DNA from: a bacterium GBS-1
GTDB taxonomy: Bacteria > Synergistota > GBS-1
Direction of reading: 5' to 3'
Length of the DNA: 64,000 bases
Assembly: GCA_001443005.1 (NCBI GenBank)
Contig: LEKQ01000001.1
Location: 594,542-658,541 of the forward strand
The translations under genes were made by a program, and so were the position numbers. Numbering within the stretch: the stretch's first letter is position 1; each line of letters starts with the position of its first letter. Under the pieces are notes generated by a model that saw only the letters and a list, made by a program, of their open reading frames with translations, ran no database searches and had not been told where the DNA came from. Shown here one piece after another: positions 10,861-30,035 of this stretch.

Positions 10861-10870
10861 CTCTCTTCCC

Positions 10871-11410
10871 TCACCCTTTCTTGAATATATCAAAGGCAGC
10901 CCTTAAGGCTTTTAAGTTTAAATCCCTAGTAGCAGGAGGTACCCTATTAAGCATGGCAGCCTCGAGCGATTCCCTTTTTACTATTCCTGTTAATGAGACC
11001 AAAACCCCCAAAGCCACTATGTTCGCAGATAAAGGCTTACCTGTCTCCCTTATGGATATCTCTGTTATAGGAAGCTCGTATATCTCAACGTCAGAGCGAG
11101 GTTTGACCTCCTTGATATAAAGTGTATCAATGATGATTAATCCTCCCTCTTTGACGCTCTCACCGTATTTATCCAGCGCATCTTGAGTCATAGCAAGTAA
11201 TATATCTGGTCTTTCGATCTCTGGGTAGTTTATCTCCTCATCGCTTATGATGATCTCGGACCTACTTGCACCACCTCTTGCCTCGGGACCATAGGACTGA
11301 TTATGCGTAGCGTTCTTTCCCTCATAAATCACCGCAGCCTCCGCAAGGATAATCCCTGCGAGAACCAGACCTTGACCACCGTAACCGCTTAACACTATCT
11401 CCTTCCTCAT
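10871..11410 (-). CDS. 2-oxoacid:ferredoxin oxidoreductase gamma subunit
   Basis: 179 aa with the SGYGGQGLVLAG block typical of OFOR gamma subunits. It directly abuts the beta-subunit gene (0-nt gap). Confidence 0.88.
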   Translation of the reverse strand: MRKEIVLSGYGGQGLVLAGIILAEAAVIYEGKNATHNQSYGPEARGGASRSEIIISDEEINYPEIERPDILLAMTQDALDKYGESVKEGGLIIIDTLYIKEVKPRSDVEIYELPITEISIRETGKPLSANIVALGVLVSLTGIVKRESLEAAMLNRVPPATRDLNLKALRAAFDIFKKG

Positions 11411-13373: not shown

Positions 13374-13597
13374 TCCTCTTCCCCCTCCCGCACCTCAACA
13401 GCATAATCAGGACACCTGAGCTCACAGCTTCTACAACCTACACACATCTCCTCGCGCATAACCCTAACCTTACCATCGCTTGTAAACTCAAAAACCTTCT
13501 TAGGGCAAAACTCTACACATATACCACAAGACTTACACCACTTAGTATTCAGAACAACCTTAAACCTCTTAGTCAAGGCAATCACCCCTTCTTTCAA
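13370..13597 (-). CDS. 2-oxoacid:ferredoxin oxidoreductase delta subunit (2x[4Fe-4S] ferredoxin)
   Basis: 75 aa with two CxxCxxCxxxCP motifs, CKSCGICVEFCP and CVGCRSCELRCP. Confidence 0.85.
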   Translation of the reverse strand: MKEGVIALTKRFKVVLNTKWCKSCGICVEFCPKKVFEFTSDGKVRVMREEMCVGCRSCELRCPDYAVEVREGEEE

Positions 13598-13602
13598 AGC
13601 GC

Positions 13603-13803
13603 TTAGCCGCCCGACATGATATATGTAACTACTATCTCGTCACCATCCCTAACTATCCTCGAGCTATACTCCCTCCTGGGCAAGACATCCCTATTCAAGA
13701 ACACAGTCATATAAGAGATATCATAACCAAGCTTCTCTAAAAGCTCCCCCACGGTCATCTCACCTTCCAAATTAACTTCCCTATTATTCACCTTAACAAG
13801 CAT
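13603..13803 (-). CDS. ThiS/MoaD-family ubiquitin-like sulfur-carrier protein ending in Gly-Gly
   Basis: MLVKVNNREVNLEG...GDEIVVTYIMSGG* has the size, N-terminal pattern and C-terminal GG typical of ThiS/MoaD. The start is ambiguous: TTG at 13821, ATG at 13812 or ATG at 13803. I prefer 13803. It ends 5 nt upstream of the OFOR delta gene. Confidence 0.65.
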   Translation of the reverse strand: MLVKVNNREVNLEGEMTVGELLEKLGYDISYMTVFLNRDVLPRREYSSRIVRDGDEIVVTYIMSGG

Positions 13804-13825
13804 CTCCTCCATTTCCTCCAAATAA

Positions 13826-13863
13826 ATTATACTCAGTATACTGTCTACTTCCTAAATCATCAA
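13826..13863 (-). promoter_or_regulatory. candidate internal sigma-70 promoter upstream of the ThiS-like/OFOR genes
   Basis: Read on the minus strand: TTGATG (13863-13858), a 17-nt spacer, then TATACT (13840-13835), followed by a second TATAAT (13831-13826) and GGAGG. It lies in the 75-nt gap after dehydratase no. 2. Confidence 0.35.
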
Positions 13864-13896
13864 GGCCACCCTTAAAAGGTATCTTTGGGTTTTTCT

Positions 13897-15552: not shown

Positions 15553-15588
15553 TCAAGATCAACTCCCTCCATGAAGCGAAAATGGCTT

Positions 15589-16479
15589 TCATAGCAAACC
15601 AAGCCTCCTTAAGCCCTCTTTTATCTTTTCCCTTACCTCTTCGCTCGCTGGTCTGAAGGGTTCTCTCGGATACATCTTTATCCCGCGTAGGTTAACCATG
15701 GTATAAGCTCCTACGGTAGTGGTATTAGCGAGCCTCATAAGGTCTCTAACGGCCATCACCCTATTGTGAACCTCTATCACCTTATCCTTAGGGGCACCGC
15801 TCATCACCACATCATAAAGCTCCTTACAAAGCTCTGGAAAAGCGTTACCCAACCCTGGAATAAAGGCTTTGATGCCCAAAGAGGACGCAGGAACAAACAG
15901 AGCCTCGGTTCCTAAAACCACATCGAAGCCTTCTTTTTCTACCTTTCTCTTGAAATCCGATAGGACCATCAAATCGAAGCTACTATCCTTAACACCATGC
16001 ACACCTATATCCGCCAACCTCTTAAGCAAGCCCACGCTAACGGCATACCCGACAGTTTTGGGATTGTTATAAACATAAACAGGCACATTAACTGCATCAA
16101 CGATTCTTTTGAAATAAAATAAGACATCCTCCTCGGCATGATGATAGTAGAAAGGAGGAACCGCTGAAACAGCATCAGCACCTATCTCCTCAGCGTGTTT
16201 AGCGAGCTCAACAGCATCCCTCGTGCTTATGCTTCCCACATGAACAATAACCGGGACCCTCCCCCCGACCTCCTTCACAATTATCTCCGCAACCCTCTTT
16301 CTCTCCTCGAGGCTAAGCAAAGGTCCGCAGCCATAGGTCCCAAGGATGAAAAGGCCATCCACCGTCCCTAAAAGGAAGCTCGTAAAATCCCTCAAAGCTC
16401 CCTCATCTATATCGCCGTTTGCATCGAAGGGAACGATCATCGGCGGAATTACCCCTCTCAACTGGGTGATACCCATCAA
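15589..16479 (-). CDS. DapA/NAL-superfamily class I aldolase or dehydratase (KD(P)G-aldolase-like)
   Basis: 296 aa. It has LGTYGCGPLLSLEERK where DapA has GTTGE; as I recall, archaeal KD(P)G aldolases read GTTGLGP.LS at this position. The Schiff-base Lys lies in HGVKDSS. Confidence 0.8.
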   Translation of the reverse strand: MMGITQLRGVIPPMIVPFDANGDIDEGALRDFTSFLLGTVDGLFILGTYGCGPLLSLEERKRVAEIIVKEVGGRVPVIVHVGSISTRDAVELAKHAEEIGADAVSAVPPFYYHHAEEDVLFYFKRIVDAVNVPVYVYNNPKTVGYAVSVGLLKRLADIGVHGVKDSSFDLMVLSDFKRKVEKEGFDVVLGTEALFVPASSLGIKAFIPGLGNAFPELCKELYDVVMSGAPKDKVIEVHNRVMAVRDLMRLANTTTVGAYTMVNLRGIKMYPREPFRPASEEVREKIKEGLRRLGLL

Positions 16480-16498
16480 AACACCCCCTTAAGGATCT

Positions 16499-18028
16499 TC
16501 ATCCCATTGTCTCTTGCAACTCGCTAATCTCCCTAAACTCATCCTGCAGCTTATGATAAATCTTCCAATATATCCTATATAACCTCTCGTATAAAACCCT
16601 TAGCCGCTCATCAGGCTCGATGCAATCGACTAACTGGACGGCCTTGGGAAGGATATCCTCATAGCTTTTTATATACCCAACGCCCCTCATGGCCATAACC
16701 GCTGCACCGAAAGAGGAAGCCTCCTCCATATTAACCCTAACTATTGATCTCCCAAGAACGCTTGATAGAACACCCGCCCAAACTTTAGACCTCATCAAAC
16801 CACCGGTTCCCCTAAGCTCTGTAGGGACGCTAACGACCTCTGAGACCGCCTCATATATACTCCTCATTCGAAAGGCTACACCCTCGATTATCGCCCTCGC
16901 TATATGTCTTCTATCATGGTGAAGCGCAAGACCGAACAAAATTCCTCTAACGTCAGCGTTCCAATAGGGGCCTCTCTCGCCGGTTAAAAAGGGCAAAAGC
17001 AAAAGCCCTCCTGCTCCTGGTTTGACCTCCTGAACCCATCTTTCGGCCTCCCTATAGAGGTCTAGGCCCATTTCTTTCAAATCCTCGTAAAAGCCATCGA
17101 TATACCAAGCCATCACAAGCCCAGCGTTGTTTATGGCGCACCCCACAAGCCAGGTATCCTCATCTAATATGTAACACCACGTTCTTCTTTTCTTATCAGT
17201 CATGGGACCCTTAACGGCCATTCTAACCGCACCGCTCGTTCCGATCATTATAGCCATCTTCCCTTCCCCGATTGAGTTGGAACCTAAAGACGATAAAGCA
17301 CCATCTCCAGCACCTATAACGATGGGAGTTCCCTCCCTTAAACTGGTTATGAGGCTAACTTCCTTAGAGACTTTTCCAACAACGGTTGAGGGGTAAACGG
17401 TCTCGCTCATTTTACCAATACTTATATCGAGGCTATCAAATATGGATTCCTCCCATTTTCTCTTATATATGTTAAGTAAACCGCTACCAGAGGCCACAGA
17501 GATATCGATGGCGAAGACCTTCGCTAAATTCCAAAGAACATACTCCTTTATGGTCATTATCCTATAAGCTTCATCAAGAGCTTGAGGGGTTTCATGCTTA
17601 AACCATATGAGCTTGGCGAGAGGATAGTTCACATGGAGGGGGCAACCTGTAATATCGTAAAGGTAATCAAACCTCTCTCGATAGCTCTTAAGCAGATCGT
17701 TAGACCTATTATCCCCCCAGATAATGAGATTGGTCTTTTTCCTCACATCAGAATCCACTAACATTATGCTGTGAAAAACGCTACTTAAACCTATGGCACC
17801 TATCTCATACTCACCGTTGGCAAGCTCCAAGGATTCCTTTATCGAGCTATATACAGCGGAGACAACCTCGTCAGGATCCTGCTCCACCCAACCAGGCTTA
17901 GGTTGAATAATCCTATAGTTTCTCTTAGCCATCGATATTAATCTTCCATCGCCATCGAAGATACAACATCTCGCCCCGGTTGTTCCTATATCAATACCTA
18001 TGAAAGCCGTCTTAGCCATCATAAACAC
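16499..18028 (-). CDS. FGGY-family carbohydrate kinase (gluconokinase/xylulokinase-like)
   Basis: 509 aa with IGIDIGTTGARC, GWVEQDP and VIGAGDGALSS blocks. The true start may be the fourth Met. Confidence 0.85.
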   Translation of the reverse strand: MFMMAKTAFIGIDIGTTGARCCIFDGDGRLISMAKRNYRIIQPKPGWVEQDPDEVVSAVYSSIKESLELANGEYEIGAIGLSSVFHSIMLVDSDVRKKTNLIIWGDNRSNDLLKSYRERFDYLYDITGCPLHVNYPLAKLIWFKHETPQALDEAYRIMTIKEYVLWNLAKVFAIDISVASGSGLLNIYKRKWEESIFDSLDISIGKMSETVYPSTVVGKVSKEVSLITSLREGTPIVIGAGDGALSSLGSNSIGEGKMAIMIGTSGAVRMAVKGPMTDKKRRTWCYILDEDTWLVGCAINNAGLVMAWYIDGFYEDLKEMGLDLYREAERWVQEVKPGAGGLLLLPFLTGERGPYWNADVRGILFGLALHHDRRHIARAIIEGVAFRMRSIYEAVSEVVSVPTELRGTGGLMRSKVWAGVLSSVLGRSIVRVNMEEASSFGAAVMAMRGVGYIKSYEDILPKAVQLVDCIEPDERLRVLYERLYRIYWKIYHKLQDEFREISELQETMG

Positions 18029-18043
18029 CTCAAGCTTTAAGAA

Positions 18044-18802
18044 TCAAACTGCCGTCCAGCCTCCGTCCACGAAGATTATCTGACCTGTGATATAAGAAGC
18101 CTCCTTAGAGGCCAAAAAAACCGCAACCCCTTTAAGGTCCTCCAAAGATCCAAACCTACCCAAGGGTATCCTTTTTATCATGCTTTCAAGCCTTTCTCTA
18201 TCGCTGAAGACCGCCTCGGTCATCCTGGTCTTGTACCATCCTGGCGCAATAGCGTTCACCCTTATGCCATACGCCCCCCACTCCTTAGCGAGCGCCTTAG
18301 TTAATGAGCCAACACCGCCCTTTGAAGCAGCATAGGCACATATGTTAGGAACGGTCACCTCAACCACGGTCAAGGAGCAAACGTTGATTATTGAGGGGGA
18401 ATCTGACCTCCTCAGTAATCTAAAAGCCTCCCTACACACGTAAAAGGTCCCAAAGAGATTAACCTCGATTATCTCCCTAAAATCATCGATTGGAAACTCC
18501 TCAGCGGGATACCTCCTATTGATGCCTGCAGCGTTCACAACGACATCAAGCCTACCATAGTTTCTCTCAATATTATCCATTATATTCTTCACTTCATCGT
18601 ATTTCGAGACATCGCATCTTAAGCCCGAAGCTTTAACACCATAGCCTTGACTTATCCTTAGGGCAGTCTCCTTTGCCTCCTCTATGGTCCTGCTAACTAT
18701 CAATACATCGCTTCCCGCCTCGGCGAGCCCCTCAGCGAGAGCCATACCTAATCCCCTTGACCCGCCAGTTACAAGAGAGAGCCTTCCTCTAAGGTTAAAC
18801 AT
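18044..18802 (-). CDS. SDR-family oxidoreductase (gluconate 5-dehydrogenase / KduD-like)
   Basis: 252 aa with TGGSRGLG and the catalytic YAASKGG motif. The N-terminus closely resembles what I recall of the Thermotoga gluconate 5-dehydrogenase. Confidence 0.82.
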   Translation of the reverse strand: MFNLRGRLSLVTGGSRGLGMALAEGLAEAGSDVLIVSRTIEEAKETALRISQGYGVKASGLRCDVSKYDEVKNIMDNIERNYGRLDVVVNAAGINRRYPAEEFPIDDFREIIEVNLFGTFYVCREAFRLLRRSDSPSIINVCSLTVVEVTVPNICAYAASKGGVGSLTKALAKEWGAYGIRVNAIAPGWYKTRMTEAVFSDRERLESMIKRIPLGRFGSLEDLKGVAVFLASKEASYITGQIIFVDGGWTAV

Positions 18803-20276
18803 TTGCCCCCGTTATCCTCCTTCTCCCAAGAATCATTAGCACTATCAATACCCAAAGAATTATACAAATAGGCCTAGTAAAGAAAGGAGTTATGCTTTCA
18901 TTTAACGTCAAAGCCCTTCTTAGGTTCTCATCAGCCATCCTACCCAAAATCAACCCCAGGGTAAATGGAGCGAGAGGATAGCCGTGATTTCTCAGTACGT
19001 AACCTACTAAACCGAAAAGCAAGGTTACGTAGACGTCAAAAATGGAGTGATTCACAGCGTAGGCACCTATAACGCAGAGAGTTATTACTATAGGCATTAA
19101 GATGTCCTTCTTCACCAGCAACACCTTTATAAGTACGTTGCTTATAAGAAGCCCAAAGATAAGAAGCATAAAGTTAGCCAAAACCTGCATAGCAACGTAA
19201 TCATAGAAAAATTGCGGGGACTCAATGAAGATAAGCGGACCTGGCCTTATCCCGTGCAACAATATGCCTCCCAATAAAACGGCAGCAGCTCCGCTACCAG
19301 GTATGCCAAGAGCTATCATCGGAATCGAAGCTCCACCTATGCATGCGTTATTCGCTACCTCACAAGCGATAACCCCTTCCTTGCTCCCCTTACCTATCAT
19401 CTCCCTTTCCACACCGAGATTTTTGACAGCACCATAGCTTACCCAAGCGGCCACATCTTCACCAACGCCAGGAATAACACCGATCAGAATACCTATTATC
19501 GCAGACCTTATGGTCGTCTTCCAGTATCTAAAAACCTCTACTAAGGGAATACTAACCCTGAGCTTCTTAGGATCAACCACTAACTCCCCCTGTTTCGGCT
19601 CCCTCATCACGCAAAAAACCTCGGTTAAACCGAAAAGGCCTATCAAGGCAGGTATCAGAGATATGCCACTCATCAAATTTAGGCTGCCGAAGGTGAACCT
19701 TGGATAGGTGGTCATGTTATCCATACCTATCATAGCGGTCATAAGACCGAGAAAGCCCGTTATCCACCCCTTTAATTGCAACTCACCCATAGACAAGCTT
19801 CCACATATCATCACTCCCATTATGGTCAAAACGAAGAACTCCCAGGAACCAAACTTCAGGGCTATCTTAGCAAGCAAAGGGGTAGAAACAGCCAAGGCTA
19901 AGACGCCTATTAAACCACCCCAGAAGGAAGCTAAACGAGCAAGCCCTAAAGCTTCCCCAGCCATCCCATTCTTAGCTAATTCGTATCCATCTATAGCGGT
20001 AGCTGCAGCTGAAGGGGTACCAGGGATGTTAAGCAAAATGGCACTATTGGATCCTCCATATATACCACCGCAATAGAGAGCTACGAGCATCGGTATGGCA
20101 TATCGAGGGTCCAGACCATAGGTTATACCACTTAAGAGGGCTATACCCATCGTAGCTGTAAGACCAGGTAAAGCCCCGATTATTACCCCAAGGACAGAAG
20201 ATAGTGACATCAAAGATAGCAGCTTTAAGTCAAGAAGACCAACGAAACCATCAAAAAGCCTTAATAAGCTTTCCAC
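18795..20276 (-). CDS. tctA: tripartite tricarboxylate transporter (TTT) large permease TctA, copy 1
   Basis: 493-aa polytopic membrane protein with GALPGLTATMGIALL and GIPGSGAAAVLLG blocks. Its 3' end overlaps the SDR start by 8 nt. Confidence 0.88.
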   Translation of the reverse strand: MESLLRLFDGFVGLLDLKLLSLMSLSSVLGVIIGALPGLTATMGIALLSGITYGLDPRYAIPMLVALYCGGIYGGSNSAILLNIPGTPSAAATAIDGYELAKNGMAGEALGLARLASFWGGLIGVLALAVSTPLLAKIALKFGSWEFFVLTIMGVMICGSLSMGELQLKGWITGFLGLMTAMIGMDNMTTYPRFTFGSLNLMSGISLIPALIGLFGLTEVFCVMREPKQGELVVDPKKLRVSIPLVEVFRYWKTTIRSAIIGILIGVIPGVGEDVAAWVSYGAVKNLGVEREMIGKGSKEGVIACEVANNACIGGASIPMIALGIPGSGAAAVLLGGILLHGIRPGPLIFIESPQFFYDYVAMQVLANFMLLIFGLLISNVLIKVLLVKKDILMPIVITLCVIGAYAVNHSIFDVYVTLLFGLVGYVLRNHGYPLAPFTLGLILGRMADENLRRALTLNESITPFFTRPICIILWVLIVLMILGRRRITGANV

Positions 20277-20300
20277 CTCGATCCCTCCTCAAAGCAGAAC

Positions 20301-20783
20301 TTAGGGCAACCTCACTCCAAGTAAATGTCCAAATGAGTACATCAAGCTCAAACTCACCAAAAGAGCGATCCCGATCGCGACGTGTAGCTTGACACTTTTA
20401 AAGTAAAGATAGGACCCAACTAGATAGAGAAAAGTCGCCAAAGTATAGGGTATCTTCCCCAAAAGAGCAACATAGGCGACCGTTAAAGCTATAAAGACGA
20501 CGAGCCTTTGTGTCTTGAGTCTCTCCTCCCTGCTTCCCTCATTTCTCCCCTTTGACTCCGAGAGGCTCCAACCTTTAAGGTTTCTTTTAAAGATAAACAA
20601 GAGGTAAAACATAAGCGCAGCTGAAAGAACCATAAGAATTGCCGATAAAACTGCGGGGGTAAGACCTGGGGAGTCATGAGGGTCTCCAGTAGGCATCTTT
20701 AGGGATTCAAACAAGCCATAAGCACCGATCAGGAAAACGAAAAGGGCAATCGCAAACTCCCACCACCATCTCTTCCTATCCAT
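20301..20783 (-). CDS. tctB: TTT small membrane subunit TctB, copy 1
   Basis: 160 aa with about 4 hydrophobic helices, positioned between tctC and tctA. Confidence 0.7.
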   Translation of the reverse strand: MDRKRWWWEFAIALFVFLIGAYGLFESLKMPTGDPHDSPGLTPAVLSAILMVLSAALMFYLLFIFKRNLKGWSLSESKGRNEGSREERLKTQRLVVFIALTVAYVALLGKIPYTLATFLYLVGSYLYFKSVKLHVAIGIALLVSLSLMYSFGHLLGVRLP

Positions 20784-20813
20784 CCTGAACTAAATCGCCT
20801 CCCCCTTAAAACA

Positions 20814-20845
20814 GTGCATGGCAGGAGGAAGAACCTGCCATGCAC
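20814..20845 (-). terminator. intercistronic GC-rich stem-loop between tctC1 and tctB1 (partial terminator or mRNA stabiliser)
   Basis: A perfect 12-bp stem, GTGCATGGCAGG / CCTGCCATGCAC, with an 8-nt loop, 24 nt after the tctC1 stop. On the minus strand it is followed by TGTTTTAAG. Confidence 0.5.
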
Positions 20846-20869
20846 CCATCTCTATCTAAGGGTCCAAAC

Positions 20870-21877
20870 TTACTCCGGCTTAGGAATCTTGAAATCCTCA
20901 GGAGATTTCTTCGCAAGCTTCAACTCATGTAAGAGCCAGCTAACCAAAGATGTCTCTCTCTTAGCGTACTCCTCAGACTTCTGCCTATCATAGCCAAGAT
21001 AAACCATGGCCTGCTTCTGTACGAACTCCTTGAACTTAGGAGACTGAACGGCCTTAGCGTATGCCTTATCTATCGCATCTACAACCTCTTGAGGAACATC
21101 CCTAGGAACTGCTATGCCCCACCAACCACCGAAAGGTAGATATTTCTTAATATCAGGAGCCCACTTCGCCACAGTGGGAACCTTACCTACGCCCTCTATC
21201 TCAATATCCTCGTCATTGAACGTCGCAAGGATCCTAAGCTGGCCACCCTTTATCAAATCTATGGCCTCCATTAAGCCTGGAATTCCCGCTTTCGTCTCCC
21301 CTGCCACAGCCGCGGCAGCAGCCGCACGACCGCTGGGATAAACCACTATCTTAAAGTCCCCTCCAACAGATTTCTTAAGCATCTCCAAAGCTATATGCCA
21401 CCCGTTGGCTATACCAGAGTTAGCAAGGGTTAAGTCCTTCCCCATCTCCTTCATAGCCTTAATGAAATCATCCATGGTCTTTATGGGAGAATCGGGCTTA
21501 ACGCATATGGTCGCTACACCAGCAGCAGCGATCCACATATGAAAGTCCTTATAAGAGAAGGGACCAAGGTCCATCACCTGATACATCCTTATGTTATCTG
21601 AGAGTCCTAACCAAATATAACCATCATGAGGCTGACCCATGACGTAAGCTGTCGCAACAGCTCCAGTGGCCCCAGGCATATTTATGACATTAATAGGAAC
21701 CCCTAGGATCTGCTGCATCTCTGCCGCCAATGCTCTATTGACCTGGTCTGTTGCTCCACCCGCACCGAACTGAACTATAACGGTTATAGGTCTCGTTGGA
21801 TAGGCAGCCCATCCCATACCTGCGAAGACACCCACGAACAAGCCCAACACCGCCAACATAACAAGAGCCTTCTTCAT
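20870..21877 (-). CDS. tctC: TTT periplasmic solute-binding protein TctC (Bug family), copy 1
   Basis: 335 aa with a signal peptide (MKKALVMLAVLGLFVGVFAGMGWA), the FGAGGATD and MPGATGAVA blocks, and the tctCBA gene order. Confidence 0.85.
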   Translation of the reverse strand: MKKALVMLAVLGLFVGVFAGMGWAAYPTRPITVIVQFGAGGATDQVNRALAAEMQQILGVPINVINMPGATGAVATAYVMGQPHDGYIWLGLSDNIRMYQVMDLGPFSYKDFHMWIAAAGVATICVKPDSPIKTMDDFIKAMKEMGKDLTLANSGIANGWHIALEMLKKSVGGDFKIVVYPSGRAAAAAAVAGETKAGIPGLMEAIDLIKGGQLRILATFNDEDIEIEGVGKVPTVAKWAPDIKKYLPFGGWWGIAVPRDVPQEVVDAIDKAYAKAVQSPKFKEFVQKQAMVYLGYDRQKSEEYAKRETSLVSWLLHELKLAKKSPEDFKIPKPE

Positions 21878-21901
21878 CTTTCTTCCCCCCTTTAGATTAA
21901 T

Positions 21902-21919
21902 TTCTTAAAGCTTTAAGAA
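21902..21919. promoter_or_regulatory. perfect 18-bp palindrome TTCTTAAAGCTTTAAGAA upstream of tctC1 (operator candidate)
   Basis: The sequence is its own reverse complement. It lies 24 nt upstream of the tctC1 ATG, just upstream of the AGGGGGGA Shine-Dalgarno sequence. It shares its half-sites with the palindrome at 26351-26366. Confidence 0.4.
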
Positions 21920-21954
21920 CCTCTTCCTTTTCACATCACCTCCCTCTACGGCTT

Positions 21955-23109
21955 TTACATGGCAGATCTGCATATCTGGATCAGATCTTCCAAGGTAGGA
22001 GTTCTCGGATTAATGGGTATCCCAACGTTACTCATCGCCTCACGACATATATCTTCAATGGCATCCTCTTTGACGCCTACCTCTCTTAGCCCTGCCGGTA
22101 TACCCACATCTCTACACAAAGCCTTTACCGCCTCAACCGCCCTACGTGCAGCCTGAAGCTCCGTAAGACCGGAAACGCTCTCTCCCAACGCTTCAGCTAT
22201 CTTAGCAAACTTAGAAAGGTTGCCAATGAGATTAAACTCCATACCATAGGGTAATAGGATAGCGTTTATCACACCATGAGGCACGTCGAAGTACCCACCC
22301 ATAACAGCTGTGATAGCGTGAATAACGCCCAAGCGCGTATTTGCGAAAGCCAAGGCTGCCATCGTGCTTCCTAAGAGCATGTTATAGCGAGCTTCAATAT
22401 TATCCCCCTTAGCATAGGCAGCCCTCAGATACTTTCCAATAAGATAGATAGCGTGATAGGCAAGCGACTCCGATATAGGCTCAGTTACAACGTTCGTGAA
22501 GGACTCTATAGCGTGAGTTAGAGCATCTAAACCAGTAGCAGCGGTCACGCTTGGCGGCATACTCAAGGTTAGAAGGGGGTCGCAAACCGCAATGTGAGGA
22601 GCGATCTTAGGATTACCTATGCCCATCTTAACTTTCTTCTTGGTATCCTTTATCACCGTCACCCAAGTTATCTCGCTACCTGTGCCAGCCGTAGTAGGAA
22701 CGGCAATGAGAGGAAGTATCCTGTTCTTCGGAGGGTTCTTCCAAAAGTAGGCTATCTCCCCCTCGTTAGTTAAAAGTAGACCGATCGCCTTAGCGGTGTC
22801 TATCGAGCTTCCTCCCCCAATCGCCAATAGGAGATCACACCCAAACTCCCGAGCAACTTTAACTCCCTCCTCGACTATCTCAACCGTCGGATTAGGCTCA
22901 ACTTTAGAGAAAACCTCAGTTCTAAAGCCAGCAATATCCAACTTGGCCTTTATGCCATTTACGATGTTCGTGCACATCAATCCCGGATCCGTAACTATTA
23001 AGACGCTCTTTCCGCCCAGTTCGTTAACCCTGTCTACTATTTTTTCGGCCTCTCCTATCCCAAAATACAACTTAGTCGGAATCTGCCAAACGAAGGGCTT
23101 AACAAACAT
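21955..23109 (-). CDS. iron-containing (group III) alcohol dehydrogenase
   Basis: 384 aa with GGGSSIDTAKAIG, the metal-binding His region LDALTHAIES and VPHGVINA. Confidence 0.88.
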   Translation of the reverse strand: MFVKPFVWQIPTKLYFGIGEAEKIVDRVNELGGKSVLIVTDPGLMCTNIVNGIKAKLDIAGFRTEVFSKVEPNPTVEIVEEGVKVAREFGCDLLLAIGGGSSIDTAKAIGLLLTNEGEIAYFWKNPPKNRILPLIAVPTTAGTGSEITWVTVIKDTKKKVKMGIGNPKIAPHIAVCDPLLTLSMPPSVTAATGLDALTHAIESFTNVVTEPISESLAYHAIYLIGKYLRAAYAKGDNIEARYNMLLGSTMAALAFANTRLGVIHAITAVMGGYFDVPHGVINAILLPYGMEFNLIGNLSKFAKIAEALGESVSGLTELQAARRAVEAVKALCRDVGIPAGLREVGVKEDAIEDICREAMSNVGIPINPRTPTLEDLIQICRSAM

Positions 23110-23209
23110 GCTATCCCCCCTCTATACTTTATTATTGTGATAATATCATCCATCCAAACAAATCTATCCTTATCCGCCAACGGAACAACATTCGCTATTT
23201 CTAAATGAT

Positions 23210-23238
23210 ATCTTAACATAAGCACCCGACAGCGTCAA
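23210..23238 (-). promoter_or_regulatory. candidate sigma-70 promoter for the Fe-ADH-led supra-operon
   Basis: Minus strand: TTGACG (23238-23233), a 17-nt spacer, then TAAGAT (23215-23210). This would give a 5' UTR of about 100 nt before the adh ATG at 23109. Confidence 0.4.
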
Positions 23239-23299
23239 GCCATGTTCGTATACCCAGTATGCTTGGATTAATGGTAATACCTCAACTATTTCGCATATA

Positions 23300-23320
23300 G
23301 GAGAATCTTTTAGATTCTCT
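23300..23320 (-). terminator. weak stem-loop after tctA2
   Basis: An 8-bp stem, GAGAATCT/AGATTCTC, with a 3-nt loop, beginning 5 nt after the tctA2 stop. No clear U-tract follows. Confidence 0.3.
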
Positions 23321-23325
23321 CTATC

Positions 23326-24795
23326 TTAGTCCTTTAATTTACGCACCACCTTCCAAATAGATGGTCCTAAAAGGGTTAAAACTATAAGAGAAAACAAGAT
23401 TAAAGATATGGGACGGGTTAGGAAAGGGATAATGCTACCACCTGACTTTATAAGCCCTATACGGAGATTGTCCTCGATCATCCTACCAAGGATTAGAGCT
23501 AAAACCATTGGAGCAAGAGGCATGTTTATTTTCTCCATAACGTAGCCGAGTAAGCCAAACAGCGCCATTAGCCATATATCGAAGACGCTGTTTCTTATGG
23601 CGTAGGAGCCTACCATGGAAAACAGAACCACAGCACTCATAACTACACCTGCTCTAAGGCTAACCAAGCGAGAAAAGGCCTTTATCCCCAGCCACCCAAC
23701 CGGTAAAAGCATTATCTGCACCAGCAGGGCTACAGCGAAAATCTGATATACCAAATCCTTAGATTGAGCGAAGATGAGCGGTCCAGGCTTCAAGCCATAC
23801 ATCAGCATAGCGCCTAGGACTATCGCAGTTATAGAATCGCCAGGTATCCCCAGTGCCAGTGCAGGGATCCAAGTTCCACCTATAGCAGCATTATTCGCAC
23901 TGGTTGGAGCTATAACGCCACGGGGGCTACCGGAACCTATCTCATTACCACTAAGGCTTTTTTCCGCTCCATAGGCAACCCATGCAGCGATGTCCGCCCC
24001 CGCTCCAGGAAGAGCACCTATGAAAGTCCCTATCAAAGAGCTCCTTATTATAATGAACTTATTGCGATACATAAGCTTTAAAGCCTCAAGCACATCCAAC
24101 TTCCCATTGATTTTAACGCTTGGTAAGTCCAAGCTCTCCCTAAAGGACAATCTCTTCAATACCTCGGAAATTCCAAAAAGTCCTATCATAGCTGGGATAA
24201 AGCTAACACCATCCATCAGCTCCGTGATCCCAAAGGTAAACCTGGGATATCCCGTGGTGACATCTATACCTATGGTAGATATGAGAAGCCCAAACAAGGC
24301 TGAAAGAAGCCCCTTGATGGTATTACCTCTACTTAAAACGGCAGCCATGCTTAAACCAAAGACCCCCAACCAGAAATACTCGAAGTGCGTGAACTTCAAG
24401 GCTACCTCAGCTAACGGGGGAGCAGTGAAGATCAATATCAAAACCCCTATCAATCCTCCAAGAGCAGAACAGAAGAGATCCAAAGTTAAGGCTAAAGCTC
24501 CTTTACCCTTCTTATTCATCTCAAAGCCATCTAAAACCGCTGCCCCAGAGGCTGGCGTACCCGGAATCCTTAAGAAGGTCGCGGGAATATCGCCTGCAAA
24601 TATGGCGGTGAAGGAAACACCTATAACCATAGCCAAACCCGTTAGGGGCTCCATGTAATAGGTCAATGGTATTATGAGAGCTACGGCCATCGTAGCCGTA
24701 AGGCCAGGCATAGCGCCCACGAAAACGCCAAAGGCCATTGAAAGCAAAAGCGGAAAAAGAACCTTTAAGGAAAGGATGGATAAAAGATAAGACAT
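23326..24795 (-). CDS. tctA: TTT large permease TctA, copy 2
   Basis: 489 aa, a paralogue of 18795-20276, with GAMPGLTATMAVALI and GIPGDSITAIVLG blocks. Confidence 0.88.
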   Translation of the reverse strand: MSYLLSILSLKVLFPLLLSMAFGVFVGAMPGLTATMAVALIIPLTYYMEPLTGLAMVIGVSFTAIFAGDIPATFLRIPGTPASGAAVLDGFEMNKKGKGALALTLDLFCSALGGLIGVLILIFTAPPLAEVALKFTHFEYFWLGVFGLSMAAVLSRGNTIKGLLSALFGLLISTIGIDVTTGYPRFTFGITELMDGVSFIPAMIGLFGISEVLKRLSFRESLDLPSVKINGKLDVLEALKLMYRNKFIIIRSSLIGTFIGALPGAGADIAAWVAYGAEKSLSGNEIGSGSPRGVIAPTSANNAAIGGTWIPALALGIPGDSITAIVLGAMLMYGLKPGPLIFAQSKDLVYQIFAVALLVQIMLLPVGWLGIKAFSRLVSLRAGVVMSAVVLFSMVGSYAIRNSVFDIWLMALFGLLGYVMEKINMPLAPMVLALILGRMIEDNLRIGLIKSGGSIIPFLTRPISLILFSLIVLTLLGPSIWKVVRKLKD

Positions 24796-24802
24796 CTACA
24801 CT

Positions 24803-25294
24803 CTACCCCCTTAAGAGTGAAAATATAACTCCCTCAGGTAAGGGTAGCTTAAATATAACCTTGAAAATCCAATGGATTAACAAAGCCAAGACTACAGAAT
24901 AAACTAGAGATGAAAACCACCTAACTCTCATAAATCGCATTAGGAAAACTCCCAAGAGCGTTATACCAATCACGCTTCCGAAAATCTTCAGAACCGGGTA
25001 AAAGAGAAACCCCACACCTATGATAATTACGAAGCTCAAGCTTTTATATAAGCTGACGCCTTTAAATAGCGATGATCTCAATTCCTCCCTCGCTTTAAAT
25101 AGAGAGGTCAAACCAGATACAAAAAAGTAAAAACCAAAGATCAAGATCAAAAAAGCTAAGAGATCCGGGAAAAAGCTCGGTCCAGGCAACTTTTCCCCTC
25201 TTACCGTAAACTTCGGGAAAAACCTGGAATGGTAAAAAACGAAGCCTGATAAAGCGAAACAGCTCAAACTCAATATAAGGTCACTCCACCCCAT
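24803..25294 (-). CDS. tctB: TTT small membrane subunit TctB, copy 2
   Basis: 163 aa with 4 hydrophobic helices, positioned between tctC2 and tctA2. Confidence 0.7.
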   Translation of the reverse strand: MGWSDLILSLSCFALSGFVFYHSRFFPKFTVRGEKLPGPSFFPDLLAFLILIFGFYFFVSGLTSLFKAREELRSSLFKGVSLYKSLSFVIIIGVGFLFYPVLKIFGSVIGITLLGVFLMRFMRVRWFSSLVYSVVLALLIHWIFKVIFKLPLPEGVIFSLLRG

Positions 25295-25319
25295 TTAGCC
25301 ACAATCCCCCTTTAAAGGC

Positions 25320-25349
25320 GGGGCAAGCTCGTGGGAACGAGCTTGCCCC
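25320..25349 (-). terminator. intercistronic GC-rich stem-loop between tctC2 and tctB2
   Basis: A perfect 12-bp stem, GGGGCAAGCTCG / CGAGCTTGCCCC, with a 6-nt loop, 13 nt after the tctC2 stop and 25 nt before the tctB2 ATG. Confidence 0.5.
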
Positions 25350-25362
25350 AAAGAGAATACCT

Positions 25363-26337
25363 TTACTTCTTAAGATATCCGCCTAGCTCGAGAACCGTCT
25401 TCCAAGCTTTATCCTGCTCCTCAACGAATTTCCTGAACTCCTCTCCCCTTCTTACCTTTATACCAAAGCCATTGGTTTCCATGAACTTCTTGAAAGCTTC
25501 AGAGTTAGCTATCTCAATAATGGCATCCTCGAGCTTCTTCTTTATCTCAGCAGGGGTTCCTTTAGGAACACCCACACCCCTCCACGTACCAGCGCTCCAG
25601 TTAATACCGAGCTCCTTTAAGGTCGGTACATCTGGGAATGCAGGAAGCCTCTCATCGGCCATAACAGCGAGAGCTCGAGCCTGACCGCTCTTTATATAAG
25701 GAGCGGCTTCCGCCAACGAACAGGTAACCACGTGGACATGCCCACCTAAAAGCTCGGTCAAAGCTTGAGCAGCGCCCGTGGTAGACGGAATCCACTTAAC
25801 GGAATCCACAGGCAAACCAGCAGCGTGAAGCATACCTATCCTAGCTAAATCCCATATCCCACCCGCTGCGACGCCGGAGAAAAGAAGCTTACCTGGATTA
25901 GCCTTTATATCGTCCAGTAGCTCCTTGAGATTCTTCCATGGGGCATCGGCCTTGACCGTTACTCCTGCAGCATCCTCGTTAACCTGAGCTATATAGTCGA
26001 AAGCCTCATAGGTTAGGTCCGTGAGGCCCATCCAGTGCATTGTGGCTAACTCCAATGTCACGATGGTTATGGTGTATCCGTCTGGGGGTGCATAAGCACC
26101 AGCGGCGTGCCCCACCGCTCCACCGCCACCCGTTTTGTTAACCACAGTGAAGGGCTGACCAAACTTCTTAGAAAGCTCATCTGCCAAAAATCGAGCAAGC
26201 CTGTCGGTGCCCCCACCAGCACCCCAAGGACAGATAACCGTAACCGCCTTCTCTGGATAGGCCGCCCACGCGCTTAAGGTAAAGACCCACGTAAACCCCA
26301 TAACCGCCAAAACTACCACCCATAAAAGCTTCTTCAT
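25363..26337 (-). CDS. tctC: TTT periplasmic solute-binding protein TctC, copy 2
   Basis: 324 aa with a signal peptide ending SAWA and the WGAGGGTD and KTGGGGAVG blocks. Confidence 0.85.
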   Translation of the reverse strand: MKKLLWVVVLAVMGFTWVFTLSAWAAYPEKAVTVICPWGAGGGTDRLARFLADELSKKFGQPFTVVNKTGGGGAVGHAAGAYAPPDGYTITIVTLELATMHWMGLTDLTYEAFDYIAQVNEDAAGVTVKADAPWKNLKELLDDIKANPGKLLFSGVAAGGIWDLARIGMLHAAGLPVDSVKWIPSTTGAAQALTELLGGHVHVVTCSLAEAAPYIKSGQARALAVMADERLPAFPDVPTLKELGINWSAGTWRGVGVPKGTPAEIKKKLEDAIIEIANSEAFKKFMETNGFGIKVRRGEEFRKFVEEQDKAWKTVLELGGYLKK

Positions 26338-26350
26338 TTTGAAACCCCCT

Positions 26351-26385
26351 TTCTTAAATTTAAGAAGCTTTGCTTAAAAAGCAAA
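26351..26385. promoter_or_regulatory. two adjacent palindromes upstream of tctC2: TTCTTAAATTTAAGAA (perfect, 16 bp) and TTTGCTT-AAA-AAGCAAA
   Basis: 26351-26366 is its own reverse complement and abuts the AGGGGG Shine-Dalgarno sequence of tctC2. 26369-26385 has 7-bp inverted arms around a 3-nt centre. Confidence 0.4.
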
Positions 26386-26430
26386 TATTACCAGTTTCAC
26401 CTCCTTCCTTATGTTAAACTCTCTGTTTAA

Positions 26431-26459
26431 AGTATAGCAAAAGAAGAACCATCTTTCGA
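26431..26459 (-). promoter_or_regulatory. candidate promoter for the tctC2B2A2 unit
   Basis: Minus strand: TCGAAA (26459-26454), a 17-nt spacer, then TATACT (26436-26431). The -35 element is weak. Confidence 0.3.
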
Positions 26460-26523
26460 GATCTCCAAAACCTTTTCGGGAAAAGATGTGCTGAAAAAAT
26501 CTCTTAAATTTTTTAGTCTATTC

Positions 26524-26997
26524 TTAAAAGCACCTTTTTCTGAGATTAAACCTTCTTAAAATGGGCAGAAACATGCCTCCAACGAGAGCTAACGCCCCAA
26601 GAGCGCCGGGCCTGGAGGAGATTTCACAACCGCCGCACCACCAGTCAAAGTCAACCCTTATGCTACGAGGCCCCCACCATGTAGAATGACCGTATTCATC
26701 CTCAACCTTAACGCATACATCGTACCACCCCTCGTACCACACCCTATACCATAGAGTGTCGCTCCACTCCACCTCAACGCCATTCACATACCATGTATAG
26801 TAAATGTAATCACCATCAGGATCATAGGCTTCAACGCGCCCCTTTATGATCGCATATTCATCACACCAATCGTATTCGTAATAATCCACATCCAACCAAA
26901 CGTTCGTTATTATAGGAGGCGAGTTCTGCCCCAAAGCATATCCAGATATACATAAGAGCAAGACAAGGGAAACAAGCGATATCTTAAGCCCCTTCAA
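26524..26997 (-). CDS. small secreted Trp/Tyr-rich PKD/Ig-like-domain protein with a C-terminal hydrophobic anchor or sorting-signal-like tail
   Basis: 157 aa. It has a signal peptide (MKGLKISLVSLVLLLCISGYALG/Q) and an NSPPIITNV...AYDPDGDYIYYTWYVNG pattern like PKD/cadherin-like Ig domains. It contains 11 Trp and 14 Tyr. The tail is CGGCEISSRPGALGALALVGGMFLPILRRFNLRKRCF. The TTG start lies in a TTGA overlap with the upstream stop, 9 nt behind GGGAGG. Confidence 0.6.
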   Translation of the reverse strand: MKGLKISLVSLVLLLCISGYALGQNSPPIITNVWLDVDYYEYDWCDEYAIIKGRVEAYDPDGDYIYYTWYVNGVEVEWSDTLWYRVWYEGWYDVCVKVEDEYGHSTWWGPRSIRVDFDWWCGGCEISSRPGALGALALVGGMFLPILRRFNLRKRCF

Positions 26998-28232
26998 ATG
27001 AAACTTCCTCCCTTAGCGCGTTCCATCAAATCAAGGAGAACTTCAACCACCTTTTGAGCAAACTCAGGATCATTTATGTTGTTATCGAGCTCGTAAACTG
27101 GTATCCCAGGTCTAAGATTAGCCTTTATCGAATCGAAGCAAGCCCTATCAGCCTCAGGATCCCAGAAGGCTTGACCAGGACTGTCAAGCATGGAAACACC
27201 CTTTAGCGGTATAAGCACGGCCACCGGCCCCTTGCTTTCGTTCGCCGCCCTAGCTATCCACTCCCCTATGGCTTTGTTTTCTTCAACGTTCGTCCTAACC
27301 AAGGTGACATTAGGATTCCACTCGTATATCTTTCTGCCCCTATACTTCTCCGGAACCGTATCTTTCGCCCAGAAATTGATCATATCGACACAACCCGGAA
27401 CTAAAACGGCAGGGATACCTCTTCTTGCAGCAGCAAAGAGCCTATCCTTCCCCGCCGATAGAACCCCTCCACCTATCTCATCAGCTAACTCCGTAGTCGT
27501 TATATCAGCCACAGCTGAAACCAAGCCCTGATCAATGAGCATCTCCATGGTTCTCCCACCGGTCCCAGTAGCGTGAAACACCAGTATCTCAAAGCGATCG
27601 CCCAAAAGCTCTTTAACCTTCTCGACGCACGGTGTCGTGTTCCCAAACATGCTTATAACTATAACTGGCTTCTCAGGCTCCTTAAGCATCTCCTCATAGG
27701 CACCATGCTCAAGCATCCCCGCGAGCGCCCCCACGGCGTTCTTATAAATCGCCCTGCTAATCCTATTTAAGCCAGCCACATCAACTATTGAGGGAAACAT
27801 CACTATATCCTTAATCCCAACATATCGAGATACATCTCCACCAGCAACCGTAGACACCATCACCTTAGGAATACCTATGGGCAAAGCTTGCATGGCCGTT
27901 GTGGCTATTATGGTCCCAGCGCTTCCTCCCATACCAAGTATGCCATGAAGATTCCCTTCATCATATAACCTCCTAACTACCTCCTTAAGCCCCTTGGTCA
28001 TCGTATCCATCGCTAAGCTCTTATCCTTTTTCGCCTGGAGCTCCTCTATGCTCACTCCCCCCGCCTTTGCCACCTCTGCCCTCGTTATATCTGGTTCGAA
28101 GAAGGGCTTCCCCATCACACCAAAATCAACCACAATAACCTCAAAACCAGAGCTCTTGAGCAGATCCCTAACGTAGGCAAAATCCTGCCCTTTGGTATCT
28201 AAGGCACCGACTAAAACAACCTTCTTAGTCAT
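26994..28232 (-). CDS. UPF0261 / Tm-1-like ATP-binding-domain protein
   Basis: 412 aa. The N-terminus KKVVLVGALDTKGQDFAYVRD and general layout match my recollection of the UPF0261 family, which is homologous to the N-terminal half of tomato Tm-1. Confidence 0.7.
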   Translation of the reverse strand: MTKKVVLVGALDTKGQDFAYVRDLLKSSGFEVIVVDFGVMGKPFFEPDITRAEVAKAGGVSIEELQAKKDKSLAMDTMTKGLKEVVRRLYDEGNLHGILGMGGSAGTIIATTAMQALPIGIPKVMVSTVAGGDVSRYVGIKDIVMFPSIVDVAGLNRISRAIYKNAVGALAGMLEHGAYEEMLKEPEKPVIVISMFGNTTPCVEKVKELLGDRFEILVFHATGTGGRTMEMLIDQGLVSAVADITTTELADEIGGGVLSAGKDRLFAAARRGIPAVLVPGCVDMINFWAKDTVPEKYRGRKIYEWNPNVTLVRTNVEENKAIGEWIARAANESKGPVAVLIPLKGVSMLDSPGQAFWDPEADRACFDSIKANLRPGIPVYELDNNINDPEFAQKVVEVLLDLMERAKGGSFI

Positions 28233-28247
28233 ACTATCCTCCCTCCC

Positions 28248-29087
28248 CTAACGAGCAAGCCTCAGCGACTTAAAGGCCTCAACCTGCGCTTTTATCGCCC
28301 TCTCTGTAGGCAGGCGCTCGATGCTTGAAGCGCCAAAGAACCCCACGACACCAGGCATCATCGCAAGAGCCTTACCCACATTCTCAGGCTCATCGAAAGG
28401 CCCTCCATGGCATATCACCAGTATATCCTTTCTAACTCTCTTAGCAGCTTCAGCGATAGACATCACCTTCTCAACGGCTTGCTCCAAGGTCATGGCCACA
28501 CCAGCTCCTATCGTACCACCGGTAGTTAAACCAACATGAGCAACGATAACATCAGCACCAGCCTTAACCATCTCAACGGCCTGGTCCTCATCAAACACAT
28601 AGGGTGTGGTAAACATATCAAGCTCATGAGCTATCCTTATCATCTCGATCTCCTTATCATACCCCATACCTGTGGCCTCAAGGTTAGCCCTGAAGTTACC
28701 GTCAATTAGACCAACAGTTGGGAAGTTCTGAACGCCGGAGAAACCCATTTCCTTAAGCTCCCTTAAGAAAACGGGCATAAGCCTAAAGGGATCTGTGCCG
28801 CAAACGCCAGCCAAAACAGGGGTGTTTTTCACAACCGGCAAGACCTCCCTCGCCATCTCAACAACTATAGCGTTAGCATCACCATAGGGCATAAGACCCG
28901 CTAGGGAACCTCTCCCACCCATCCTGAATCGACCAGAATTATAGATAACTATCAGATCTATTCCACCAGCCTCAGCCATCTTCGCGGATATCCCTGTTCC
29001 AGCTCCACCACCCACTATGGGCCTTCCAGCCTCGATCTGAGCGTGAAGGCGAGCTAATATTTCTTCCCTCGTAAAACCGATCTTCAT
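28248..29087 (-). CDS. phosphoenolpyruvate-hydrolase-like TIM-barrel protein (Tm-1 C-terminal-half homologue)
   Basis: Blocks [36 protein letters not shown] and [12 protein letters not shown]. The start ATG at 29087 is 6 nt behind GGGAGGTG; the ORF-track GTG at 29096 lies inside that Shine-Dalgarno sequence. Confidence 0.7.
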
Positions 29088-29162
29088 TAGCAACACCTCC
29101 CTTAAAAAAATCTTTTCTGACTATATTATAAAGCTTAGACAATCTTTATATCAACTTAAAAG

Positions 29163-30035
29163 ATGACAGGATCAAGGAAAGCTGATAAAATATTTAAAGG
29201 AATGAAAAGGCTATTACTCTTCCTAGGGGTCTTTATAGTTTCCTTCTCTGGAATAATGATAAGATTAAGTTCCGCTAACCCCTCTTCTATCGCCTTTTAC
29301 AGATGTCTAATAGCTTCCCTATGCTATGCATTAGCTTTGAGAGGAAGCTTTAAAAGGTTCGACCTTAAGAAGGAATTGCTCCTTTTGGTCGCCGGAGCCT
29401 TCCTTTCCATGCACTTTTTCTTCTGGATAAGCTCCTTCGAACATACTACGGTGGCAGGTGCTGTCATTCCCTTGATGCTTCAGCCCTTCCTAACATCGAT
29501 AATTTCCTTCCTACTTTACAGGGAAAGGGTATCCCCCACTCAAATCCTAGCGACCTTAATAGTCCTTTCAGGAATAACGCTGATGATGTTCTGGGATGCA
29601 AAGGCTTCCATTAGGCTATCCTTTGGAGACTTACTCTCCCTTATAGGAACCGTTTTTTTATGCGGGTTCATCCTAACCGGGAAATACCTAATCCCTAAGA
29701 TTGGAACCCTTAACTTTAACCTGAGAAGCTATGTAATTGCAAGTTTAATTCTCTTTCTAGCAAGTTATGAGAGATCCATGCAGGTCTTTCCGCTAAGAGA
29801 GTGGCTTATATTCTCAGGCCTTGGGGTAGGGTGTTCCTTCTTAGGCTACACGCTAATTAATAATTCCTTAAAGTTCTTCGGCGCAGGCACGATAGCGATG
29901 GCCTTGGTTGGCGAACCCGTGCTTAGCATATTATGGTCCTGGGTCCTTTTGGGCGAGAAAGCAACCTTTCCTCAGTTTTTCGGCCTTCTAACATCTATCG
30001 TCGGAATGATCATCTTCTTTAGAGCGAAGCTTTAA
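29163..30035 (+). CDS. EamA/DMT-family transporter
   Basis: 290 aa with about 10 hydrophobic helices in two similar halves. The start could instead be the Met at 29202. Confidence 0.7.
   Translation: MTGSRKADKIFKGMKRLLLFLGVFIVSFSGIMIRLSSANPSSIAFYRCLIASLCYALALRGSFKRFDLKKELLLLVAGAFLSMHFFFWISSFEHTTVAGAVIPLMLQPFLTSIISFLLYRERVSPTQILATLIVLSGITLMMFWDAKASIRLSFGDLLSLIGTVFLCGFILTGKYLIPKIGTLNFNLRSYVIASLILFLASYERSMQVFPLREWLIFSGLGVGCSFLGYTLINNSLKFFGAGTIAMALVGEPVLSILWSWVLLGEKATFPQFFGLLTSIVGMIIFFRAKL

Follow-up and report, generated by a model that had tools for sequence, protein, structure and literature searches.

The two genes studied here, which lie side by side in a 64,000-nucleotide (nt) stretch of contig LEKQ01000001.1 of the Synergistota bacterium GBS-1 (the window, at its full length), constitute an ordinary member of a known two-gene module, in which a bacterial Tm-1-like protein is split in two: an ATP-binding protein of the UPF0261 family and a TIM barrel of the PF09370 family ('PEP_hydrolase-like', PEP standing for phosphoenolpyruvate; also called the Mll9387 family). 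The pair is an autonomous module, and the tripartite tricarboxylate transporter (TTT) genes found next to it in the window do not belong to its conserved surroundings. We consider it possible, and only just short of probable, that the pair combines a UPF0261 small-molecule kinase with a barrel that acts on the phosphorylated product.

The identity of the two products, proposed in a preliminary description made from the DNA letters, is unequivocally borne out by profile scores. The UPF0261 protein, whose N-terminus reads MTKKVVLVGALDTKG, matches PF06792 (residues 3-175; E=3e-63, 213 bits) and then PF23189 (residues 188-403; E=6e-90, 301 bits), in that N-to-C order and in both cases above the gathering score (cut-off 27), and it reaches 581 bits against NCBIfam NF002674 (PRK02399 group; cut-off 335). 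It also matches Tm-1 (E=4e-83) and, over residues 5-402, the kinase MarK (PDB 9MPY; E=1.5e-73). The barrel covers the whole PF09370 profile (E=7e-129) and matches at full length the only solved structure of the family, Mll9387 (PDB 2P10; E=4.5e-109). The closest database relatives are Synergistetes metagenome-assembled genomes (MAGs). All the protein motifs quoted in the preliminary description were found in the two products, its two 11-residue blocks being residues 26-36 and 48-58 of the barrel protein, and the coordinates and anatomy of two tightly coupled genes with a 15-nt gap between them were confirmed from the sequence. That the two proteins correspond to the two halves, N- and C-terminal, of plant Tm-1 also holds, on the basis of a 2016 study of the origin of plant Tm-1-like genes, in which the two bacterial families are treated as interacting partners of unknown function (PMC5028733), and of natural UPF0261-barrel fusions of 711-814 amino acids (aa), which have the barrel at the C-terminus.

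The pairing of the two genes extends well beyond this locus. Two samples were compared, namely 80 genome loci around barrel homologues with 64-82% identity to the window barrel (+/-10 kb), from Chloroflexi, Deltaproteobacteria, Actinomycetota, Bacillota, Planctomycetota, Poribacteria, Spirochaetia and others, and 80 metagenome loci around the closest UPF0261 relatives (individual loci are given below by L numbers). A UPF0261 gene adjoins the barrel gene in 65 of the 80 genome loci, from more than ten phyla, and in 51 of the 80 metagenome loci. The commoner order is the UPF0261 gene followed by the barrel gene, the rarer reverse order being that of the window and of L013, L018, L042 and L088.

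A literature search returned two works bearing on function, that on MarK and PMC5028733, and no reaction assigned to the pair or to PF09370, so that the earlier statement that no reaction is assigned stands for the two-gene pair and fails for the UPF0261 domain, for which MarK (Saro_1862 of Novosphingobium aromaticivorans; JBC 2025) provided what its authors describe as the first catalytic activity (PMC12624787). MarK, a homodimeric kinase, uses ATP, which becomes ADP, to phosphorylate acetovanillone and similar aromatics at their phenolic oxygen, with ATP at D14/T15/K16 and the acceptor oxygen held by the backbone nitrogen of G195 and by H219 (PMC12624787). The general idea of an ATP-dependent phosphorylation, put forward earlier for the pair, fits this sole characterised UPF0261 enzyme. 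In the window protein, D12/T13/K14 align with the MarK nucleotide motif, in which K20 of Tm-1 also lies, and G197/H220 align with the acceptor site. Among 56 barrel-paired homologues, the Asp is kept in 54, Thr or Ser in 54 and the Lys in 53, and the acceptor Gly and His are present in all 56; the five positions are likewise kept in the 77 metagenome relatives that were scored, with a few exceptions at the His.

The positions that line the MarK pocket behave differently. MarK residues T196, F283, I285, H304 and H348 are replaced in the window protein by N198, M284, N286, W305 and L349, respectively. In MarK, H304 provides pi-stacking and H348 a hydrogen bond to the ketone, and F283, I285 and T196 form a hydrophobic face. 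The positions of F283 and I285 are Met and Asn in every one of the 56 paired homologues, that of H348 is Leu, Ile or Val, and that of H304 is His in 39 and Trp in 17. The window protein belongs to a subtype with N198/W305/L349 that is common to Chloroflexi, Deltaproteobacteria and Acidimicrobiales relatives, and the full signature K-G-N-H-M-N-W-L is found in 67 of the 77 scored metagenome relatives. Thus, as far as residue comparison can tell, the window UPF0261 protein has a MarK-like catalytic apparatus and a different substrate pocket, itself fixed among the paired homologues, and since the pocket differs, the substrate is probably different too. A side observation concerns a group of loci, L144-L167 (e.g. 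L147, L155, L160, L163 and L167), which carry a UPF0261 gene with the same signature, no barrel within 8 kb and no common neighbourhood theme; the barrel partner of these proteins may be encoded elsewhere, or they may act alone.

These residues bear directly on whether the window protein could be a MarK-type aromatic kinase for lignin-derived phenolics such as acetovanillone, with the barrel as an accessory. The UPF0261 fold, the ATP triad and the Gly/His acceptor site in common with MarK would agree with such a role, as would the prediction of the MarK authors that many homologues act on aromatics (PMC12624787). However, F283, I285, H348 and H304 of MarK correspond to M284, N286, L349 and W305, and the Met and Asn shared by all 56 paired proteins indicate a different clade. 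Moreover, MarK has no TIM-barrel partner, being a solo gene in the acvCDEF carboxylase/phosphatase operon (PMC12624787), while no operon of the acvCDEF/hpeCBAD type, and no acvCDEF/hpeCBA-type carboxylase gene, lies beside the window pair, the other loci not having been searched for carboxylase homologues specifically. The host is furthermore an anaerobic organism of Synergistetes type. An aromatic kinase is therefore improbable here, and the substrate would appear, from the pocket residues, not to be an acetovanillone-type aromatic.

For the barrel, the standard phosphate-binding site of such folds was taken as a Gly-rich loop after beta7 together with a G-x-S/T loop and a short helix after beta8. 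Both elements are present: an invariant H227-G-G-P230 follows the strand 223-227 (beta7), an invariant G252-A-S-S255, with a helix at 253-256, follows the strand 249-251 (beta8), and the modelled barrel structurally resembles phosphate-binding barrels. Because the HGGP and GASS loops match the standard phosphate-binding site, we infer that the barrel ligand is phosphorylated. The family name would suggest a more specific activity, that of a PEP or phosphonopyruvate hydrolase of the PEP mutase/isocitrate lyase superfamily, the pair then carrying out phosphoenol or phosphonate chemistry, and Mll9387 of Mesorhizobium loti (2P10), a structural genomics entry, is indeed labelled 'putative phosphonopyruvate hydrolase'. 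This label is a guess of the depositors, and the name 'PEP hydrolase' rests on no test. Neither PF13714 (PEP_mutase) nor PF00463 (ICL, isocitrate lyase) gave a Pfam match in the barrel at E<=0.01, and a PDB profile search with the barrel returned 2P10 alone. Hydrolase activity of this kind is the most improbable of the readings that we considered.

The genes around the pair give some indication of the chemistry in which it may take part. The most frequent is that of a Cupin_2 protein, about 135 aa long and with a metal motif of His and Glu, which is found in 31 of the 80 genome loci, in most cases immediately behind the barrel gene (e.g. L024 3049-3459, L023 10830-11237), and which is not present in the window; a PDB search with this protein rendered generic metal cupins only (MncA, oxalate decarboxylase and cupin-type sugar-phosphate isomerases). 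The cupin aside, clustering of the open reading frames (ORFs) of the 80 genome loci, with high-GC shadow ORFs discounted, gave no neighbour present in more than about 10% of them. In 10 of the 80 metagenome loci (L105, L108, L109, L111, L112, L115, L117, L126, L128 and L131), all of them sediment and soil contigs of one clade, the gene immediately upstream of UPF0261 encodes a TauE/SafE (TSUP) permease (PF01925, E=1e-32). A gene for a ComB-like protein, of the 2-phosphosulfolactate phosphatase family, stands beside the pair in Synergistetes (L082-L087) and Deltaproteobacteria (L002, L003 and L092), and 5 kb off in L033. In Paenibacillaceae, the operons with the pair include a sugar ATP-binding cassette (ABC) transporter, the cupin, a Gfo/Idh/MocA oxidoreductase and xylose-isomerase-like proteins; in L090 the pair adjoins Gfo/Idh/MocA and Ldh_2 genes, and in L094 the neighbours are uninformative. 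On the whole, this context leans loosely to a sugar, sugar-acid or hydroxy-acid-type metabolite. A sulfonate theme, to which ComB, the Ldh_2/ComC family and the TauE 'sulfite exporter' would belong, was considered and rejected, as the links are rare and the families broad; no sulfo-lyase or ComA was seen. As a separate observation, in an Anaerolineae MAG (L088 2905-7059) the pair, barrel first, comes after homologues of larB, larE and larC and an Amidohydro_2 gene. The products of larB, larE and larC act in nickel-pincer cofactor synthesis. The window has a LarA-like gene of its own (3329..2046), the nickel-pincer link to the pair being seen in the single locus L088.

Regulatory genes also adjoin the pair. 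In Firmicutes, the gene directly upstream of it encodes a full-length PF09370 paralogue, about 40-44% identical to the window barrel and fused either to an AraC helix-turn-helix (HTH) domain (about 400 aa; L028, L034, L043, L069 and L070) or to a sigma-54 AAA+/HTH_8 module (642 aa; L033), and length classes show the same three PF09370 fusion types family-wide. These fusions imply that the barrel binds a small ligand, and the fold would thus seem to serve as a small-ligand sensor beside the enzyme pair. It could then be the case that the barrel of the pair is itself a ligand sensor, a 'TIM-barrel signal transduction' domain, and that the pair is a regulatory ATPase/sensor module. Besides the AraC and sigma-54 enhancer-binding output domains, two further facts would speak for it, namely that Tm-1 acts by binding a protein (PMC5028733) and that the barrel is extremely conserved: among three Synergistetes lineages it is 96-97% identical versus 84-85% for UPF0261, and it keeps about 80% identity to the barrels of Chloroflexi and Deltaproteobacteria and 62% to that of Mesorhizobium, so that by these identities it appears to evolve much more slowly than its partner. 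But the barrel of the pair is a stand-alone protein with no output domain, the regulators are paralogues that occur in addition to it in the same loci, as would fit a sensor that recognises the ligand of the enzyme, and the frequent operon partners are themselves enzymes (the cupin in its 31 loci, Gfo/Idh/MocA and xylose-isomerase-like proteins). We give the sensor module, as a description of the pair, a poor chance.

It had also been proposed, from the position of the genes, that the pair acts on whatever carboxylate is imported by the second TTT system of the window, whose genes tctC2, tctB2 and tctA2 do follow after a 186-nt gap, with coordinates and Pfam matches that agree with the earlier account. 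This proposal fails the refuting test that came with it, since no conserved linkage to TctABC was found. No TctA, TctB or TctC homologue lies within +/-10 kb of the barrel gene in any of the 80 genome loci, and TTT genes appear in one of the 80 metagenome loci, L096, which is the window's own organism (99% identity). Transporter genes of other families (TauE/SafE, sugar ABC, the major facilitator superfamily and EamA) do lie near the pair, with a patchy distribution. In a related Synergistetes lineage (L082-L087), with an 85% identical UPF0261 protein, the barrel and UPF0261 genes are followed by a 161-aa ORF, the ComB-like gene and then CRISPR-Cas, and no TTT genes come after the pair. The synteny CN_hydrolase-PcrA-CoaE-EamA (divergent) followed by barrel, UPF0261 and ORF is kept in three Synergistetes lineages whatever lies downstream. 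The ComB-like protein of the window, 69% identical to that of L082 (11716-12465), is encoded 26 kb beyond the 157-aa ORF that trails the window pair, with a co-oriented block (349..26337, minus strand) in between that is not found at the equivalent position of the L082 lineage. Since that lineage has ComB directly after the ORF of the pair, the TTT adjacency is an indel specific to the window lineage and L081, a local accident.

The 26-kb block encodes, past tctC2B2A2, an iron-dependent alcohol dehydrogenase and then another tctCBA set; its contents further comprise a short-chain dehydrogenase/reductase, an FGGY kinase, a dihydrodipicolinate synthase-like protein, two IlvD/Edd dehydratases, a three-subunit 2-oxoacid:ferredoxin oxidoreductase, CoA-ligase-like alpha and beta subunits, a D-2-hydroxyacid dehydrogenase, a tungsten-type aldehyde:ferredoxin oxidoreductase, and UxaA-like, Ldh_2 and LarA-like proteins. 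By its gene content it looks like a sugar-acid/hydroxy-acid fermentation island, and its abundant hydroxy-acid and sugar-acid enzymes could supply plausible kinase substrates. An ATP-dependent transformation of the TTT cargo by the pair, all forming one catabolic unit, would also be in keeping with the common orientation of the genes, between which lie only the 157-aa ORF and a gap where no terminator is predicted, and with the same arrangement in L081 and L096. Nevertheless, we regard this possibility as improbable, in view of the near absence of TctABC from the two samples, of the L082-L087 lineage, which has identical upstream synteny and ORF and goes straight to ComB and CRISPR-Cas, of the distant ComB homologue, of a promoter-like site within the gap and of the FGGY kinase that the island has of its own. 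A PDB search with TctC2 rendered ordinary TctC/Bug proteins and no ligand clue. With respect to the L082 locus itself, the CRISPR-Cas genes after the ComB-like gene (12419-18410) include a Cas6 with an AF_1859_N domain and an AEP-TOTE (primase-like, PF22548) protein beside cas1-cas2.

To return to the kinase and its barrel partner, the favoured sequence of events would be as follows. A promoter-like site of its own would drive the barrel gene, the UPF0261 gene and perhaps the gene of the exported 157-aa protein. UPF0261 would transfer a phosphate, with conversion of ATP to ADP, to a hydroxyl of the enol, phenol or alcohol type on a small, probably polar metabolite, held as acceptor at the Gly197/His220 site in the C-terminal subdomain. 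The barrel, in complex with UPF0261, would bind the phosphorylated product and convert it, for instance by isomerisation, C-C cleavage or elimination, and in some lineages the ComB-like phosphatase would remove the phosphate afterwards. The kinase part of this model is proposed because MarK is a proven O-kinase whose five ATP and acceptor positions are kept in the window protein, and the model as a whole is supported because the pairing is conserved, fusions exist, the barrel fold serves regulators beside the pair as a ligand-binding domain, ComB-like genes adjoin the pair in two unrelated lineages, and the pair has a promoter-like site of its own and a conserved upstream synteny. A wider version, which we find unlikely though worth keeping in mind, is that the pair, which has been kept in bacteria, fungi and land plants alike, works as a two-step enzyme on one specific and widespread metabolite, with the route completed by a ComB-type phosphatase or, in other lineages, by the cupin.

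Several observations weigh against this model. The activity that has been measured in the family is that of MarK, a solo protein with no barrel, so that the role of the barrel is one that we purely infer; and even in MarK some 25 Å separate the ATP site from that of the substrate (PMC12624787). The catalytic loops of the barrel fall in low-confidence parts of the structural model (51-66, 124-131, 188-196 and 254-257). In 15 of the 80 genome loci the barrel gene has no adjacent UPF0261 gene, and more than 25 loci have a UPF0261 gene with the same pocket and no adjacent barrel. The linkage to ComB is rare (3 of the 80 genome loci and, apart from those mentioned above, none of the metagenome loci), and the genes around the pair vary too much for a substrate to be named.

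The gene that trails the pair had been described as a coupled mini-protein gene. The coupling is real, through a TTGA overlap with the UPF0261 stop codon; at 157 aa, the product is hardly a mini-protein. Its sequence comprises a signal peptide and a domain rich in Trp, Tyr and Asp that includes a YDPDGD motif, and the C-terminus carries CGGC (CGG(G)C across homologues), a hydrophobic or transmembrane stretch and an Arg/Lys tail that is reminiscent of a sortase-type sorting signal. No family reaches the cut-off: the match to PKD is weak (E=0.3 in the window and 0.017 in L082), as is that of the tail to MYXO-CTERM (E=0.45 and 0.26). Homologues with 56-58% identity follow the pair in L081 (12135-12572) and L082 (11227-11712), and none was found in the 80 genome loci, the ORF occurring in three Synergistetes lineages only. 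From these features, the product is probably an exported protein encoded on a shared transcript and not an enzyme subunit.

The features of the locus are collected in the table below. In addition, AGGGAGG can be read 8 nt 5' of the ATG of the barrel gene, whose stop codon is the TAG at 28250-28248. The divergent EamA gene probably starts at the Met at 29202, to judge from its homologues, which are 277 aa long; the control region that it would share with the barrel gene is thus 114 nt (29088..29201) and contains promoter-like sites on both strands. L081, L082-L086 (with a 277-aa product), L096 and L097 have the EamA gene in this divergent position too. Over the whole window, the GC skew is uniformly and strongly negative (about -0.2 to -0.3) and the long ORFs are nearly all on the minus strand; a tRNA scan and an Rfam scan of the window gave no matches.

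Table. Features of the locus, in order of position within the window
Feature	Position	Strand	Remarks
ComB-like gene (2-phosphosulfolactate phosphatase family)	2..358	-	start of gene, cut by window edge; PF04029 E=1.6e-31
tctA2	23326..24795	-	Pfam match E=6e-140
tctB2	24803..25294	-	Pfam match E=7e-13
tctC2	25363..26337	-	Pfam match E=3e-53
Gap between 157-aa ORF and tctC2	26338..26523	-	186 nt
Weaker candidate promoter in the 186-nt gap before tctC2	26431..26459	-	consensus scan only
157-aa ORF	26524..26997	-	TTG start at 26997 within the UPF0261 TGA stop (TTGA overlap); GGGAGG upstream
UPF0261 / Tm-1-like ATP-binding subunit gene	26994..28232	-	412 aa; predicted small-molecule kinase
Spacer between barrel gene and UPF0261 gene	28233..28247	-	15 nt; Shine-Dalgarno GGGAGGGAGG, read from sequence
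TIM-barrel gene (PF09370 'PEP_hydrolase-like' / Mll9387 family)	28248..29087	-	279 aa; ATG start
Candidate promoter upstream of barrel gene	29125..29154	-	TTGATA-18-TATAAT, 11/12 matches; consensus scan only
EamA-family transporter gene	29163..30035	+	divergent from barrel gene; PF00892 E=1e-33

The interest of these results lies in the question that they raise for the whole family and not in this particular locus. The TTT link gives no easier route to an answer. UPF0261 and PF09370 form a large and very conserved module that is present in many bacterial phyla and fused in fungi and in all land plants, where the fused protein is the Tm-1 virus-resistance protein, and naming the reaction of the pair would fill a real gap. 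Leads are provided by the fixed pocket distinct from that of MarK, the phosphate signature of the barrel, the cupin, ComB-like and TauE/SafE partners and the barrel-sensor regulators; among the latter, the barrel-domain AraC and sigma-54 regulators beside the Firmicutes pair could reveal the ligand. If the wider version of the model given above is true, the module would represent an undescribed pathway of phosphorylation, transformation and dephosphorylation, or a metabolite-repair system.

A comparable case is that of the DUF1537 acid-sugar kinases (OtnK/DtnK type), ATP-dependent enzymes for four-carbon substrates that were once of unknown function and that are found in acid-sugar catabolic clusters, often with tripartite ATP-independent periplasmic (TRAP) or TTT transporters. 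The likeness to the pair is one of analogy only, as family and fold differ and no homology was detected. The acetovanillone route follows a logic of kinase, carboxylase and phosphatase (PMC9618137), and the succession UPF0261, barrel and ComB may be likened to that logic of phosphorylating, transforming and dephosphorylating, although HpeHI/AcvAB, which open the route, belong to unrelated families and are dikinases that give AMP, in contrast to the MarK type of ATP-to-ADP transfer. The idea that the HpeD/AcvF phosphatases could be ComB-like was rejected, HpeD being NagD-like (PMC9618137). MarK itself shares with the window protein the two-domain UPF0261 architecture, the D-T-K triad and the acceptor Gly and His, while its solo position in a carboxylase/phosphatase operon differs from that of the window protein, which has a PF09370 barrel, an exported ORF, EamA and TTT genes as neighbours. 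Finally, the N-terminal UPF0261 part and the C-terminal TIM part of Tm-1 (PDB 3WRV-3WRY), whose known function in tomato is to bind a viral replicase, match the two window proteins, and L349 of the window UPF0261 protein equals the Tm-1 residue at that position; what is in Tm-1 a single chain, UPF0261 then TIM, is in the window a pair of genes in the reverse order.

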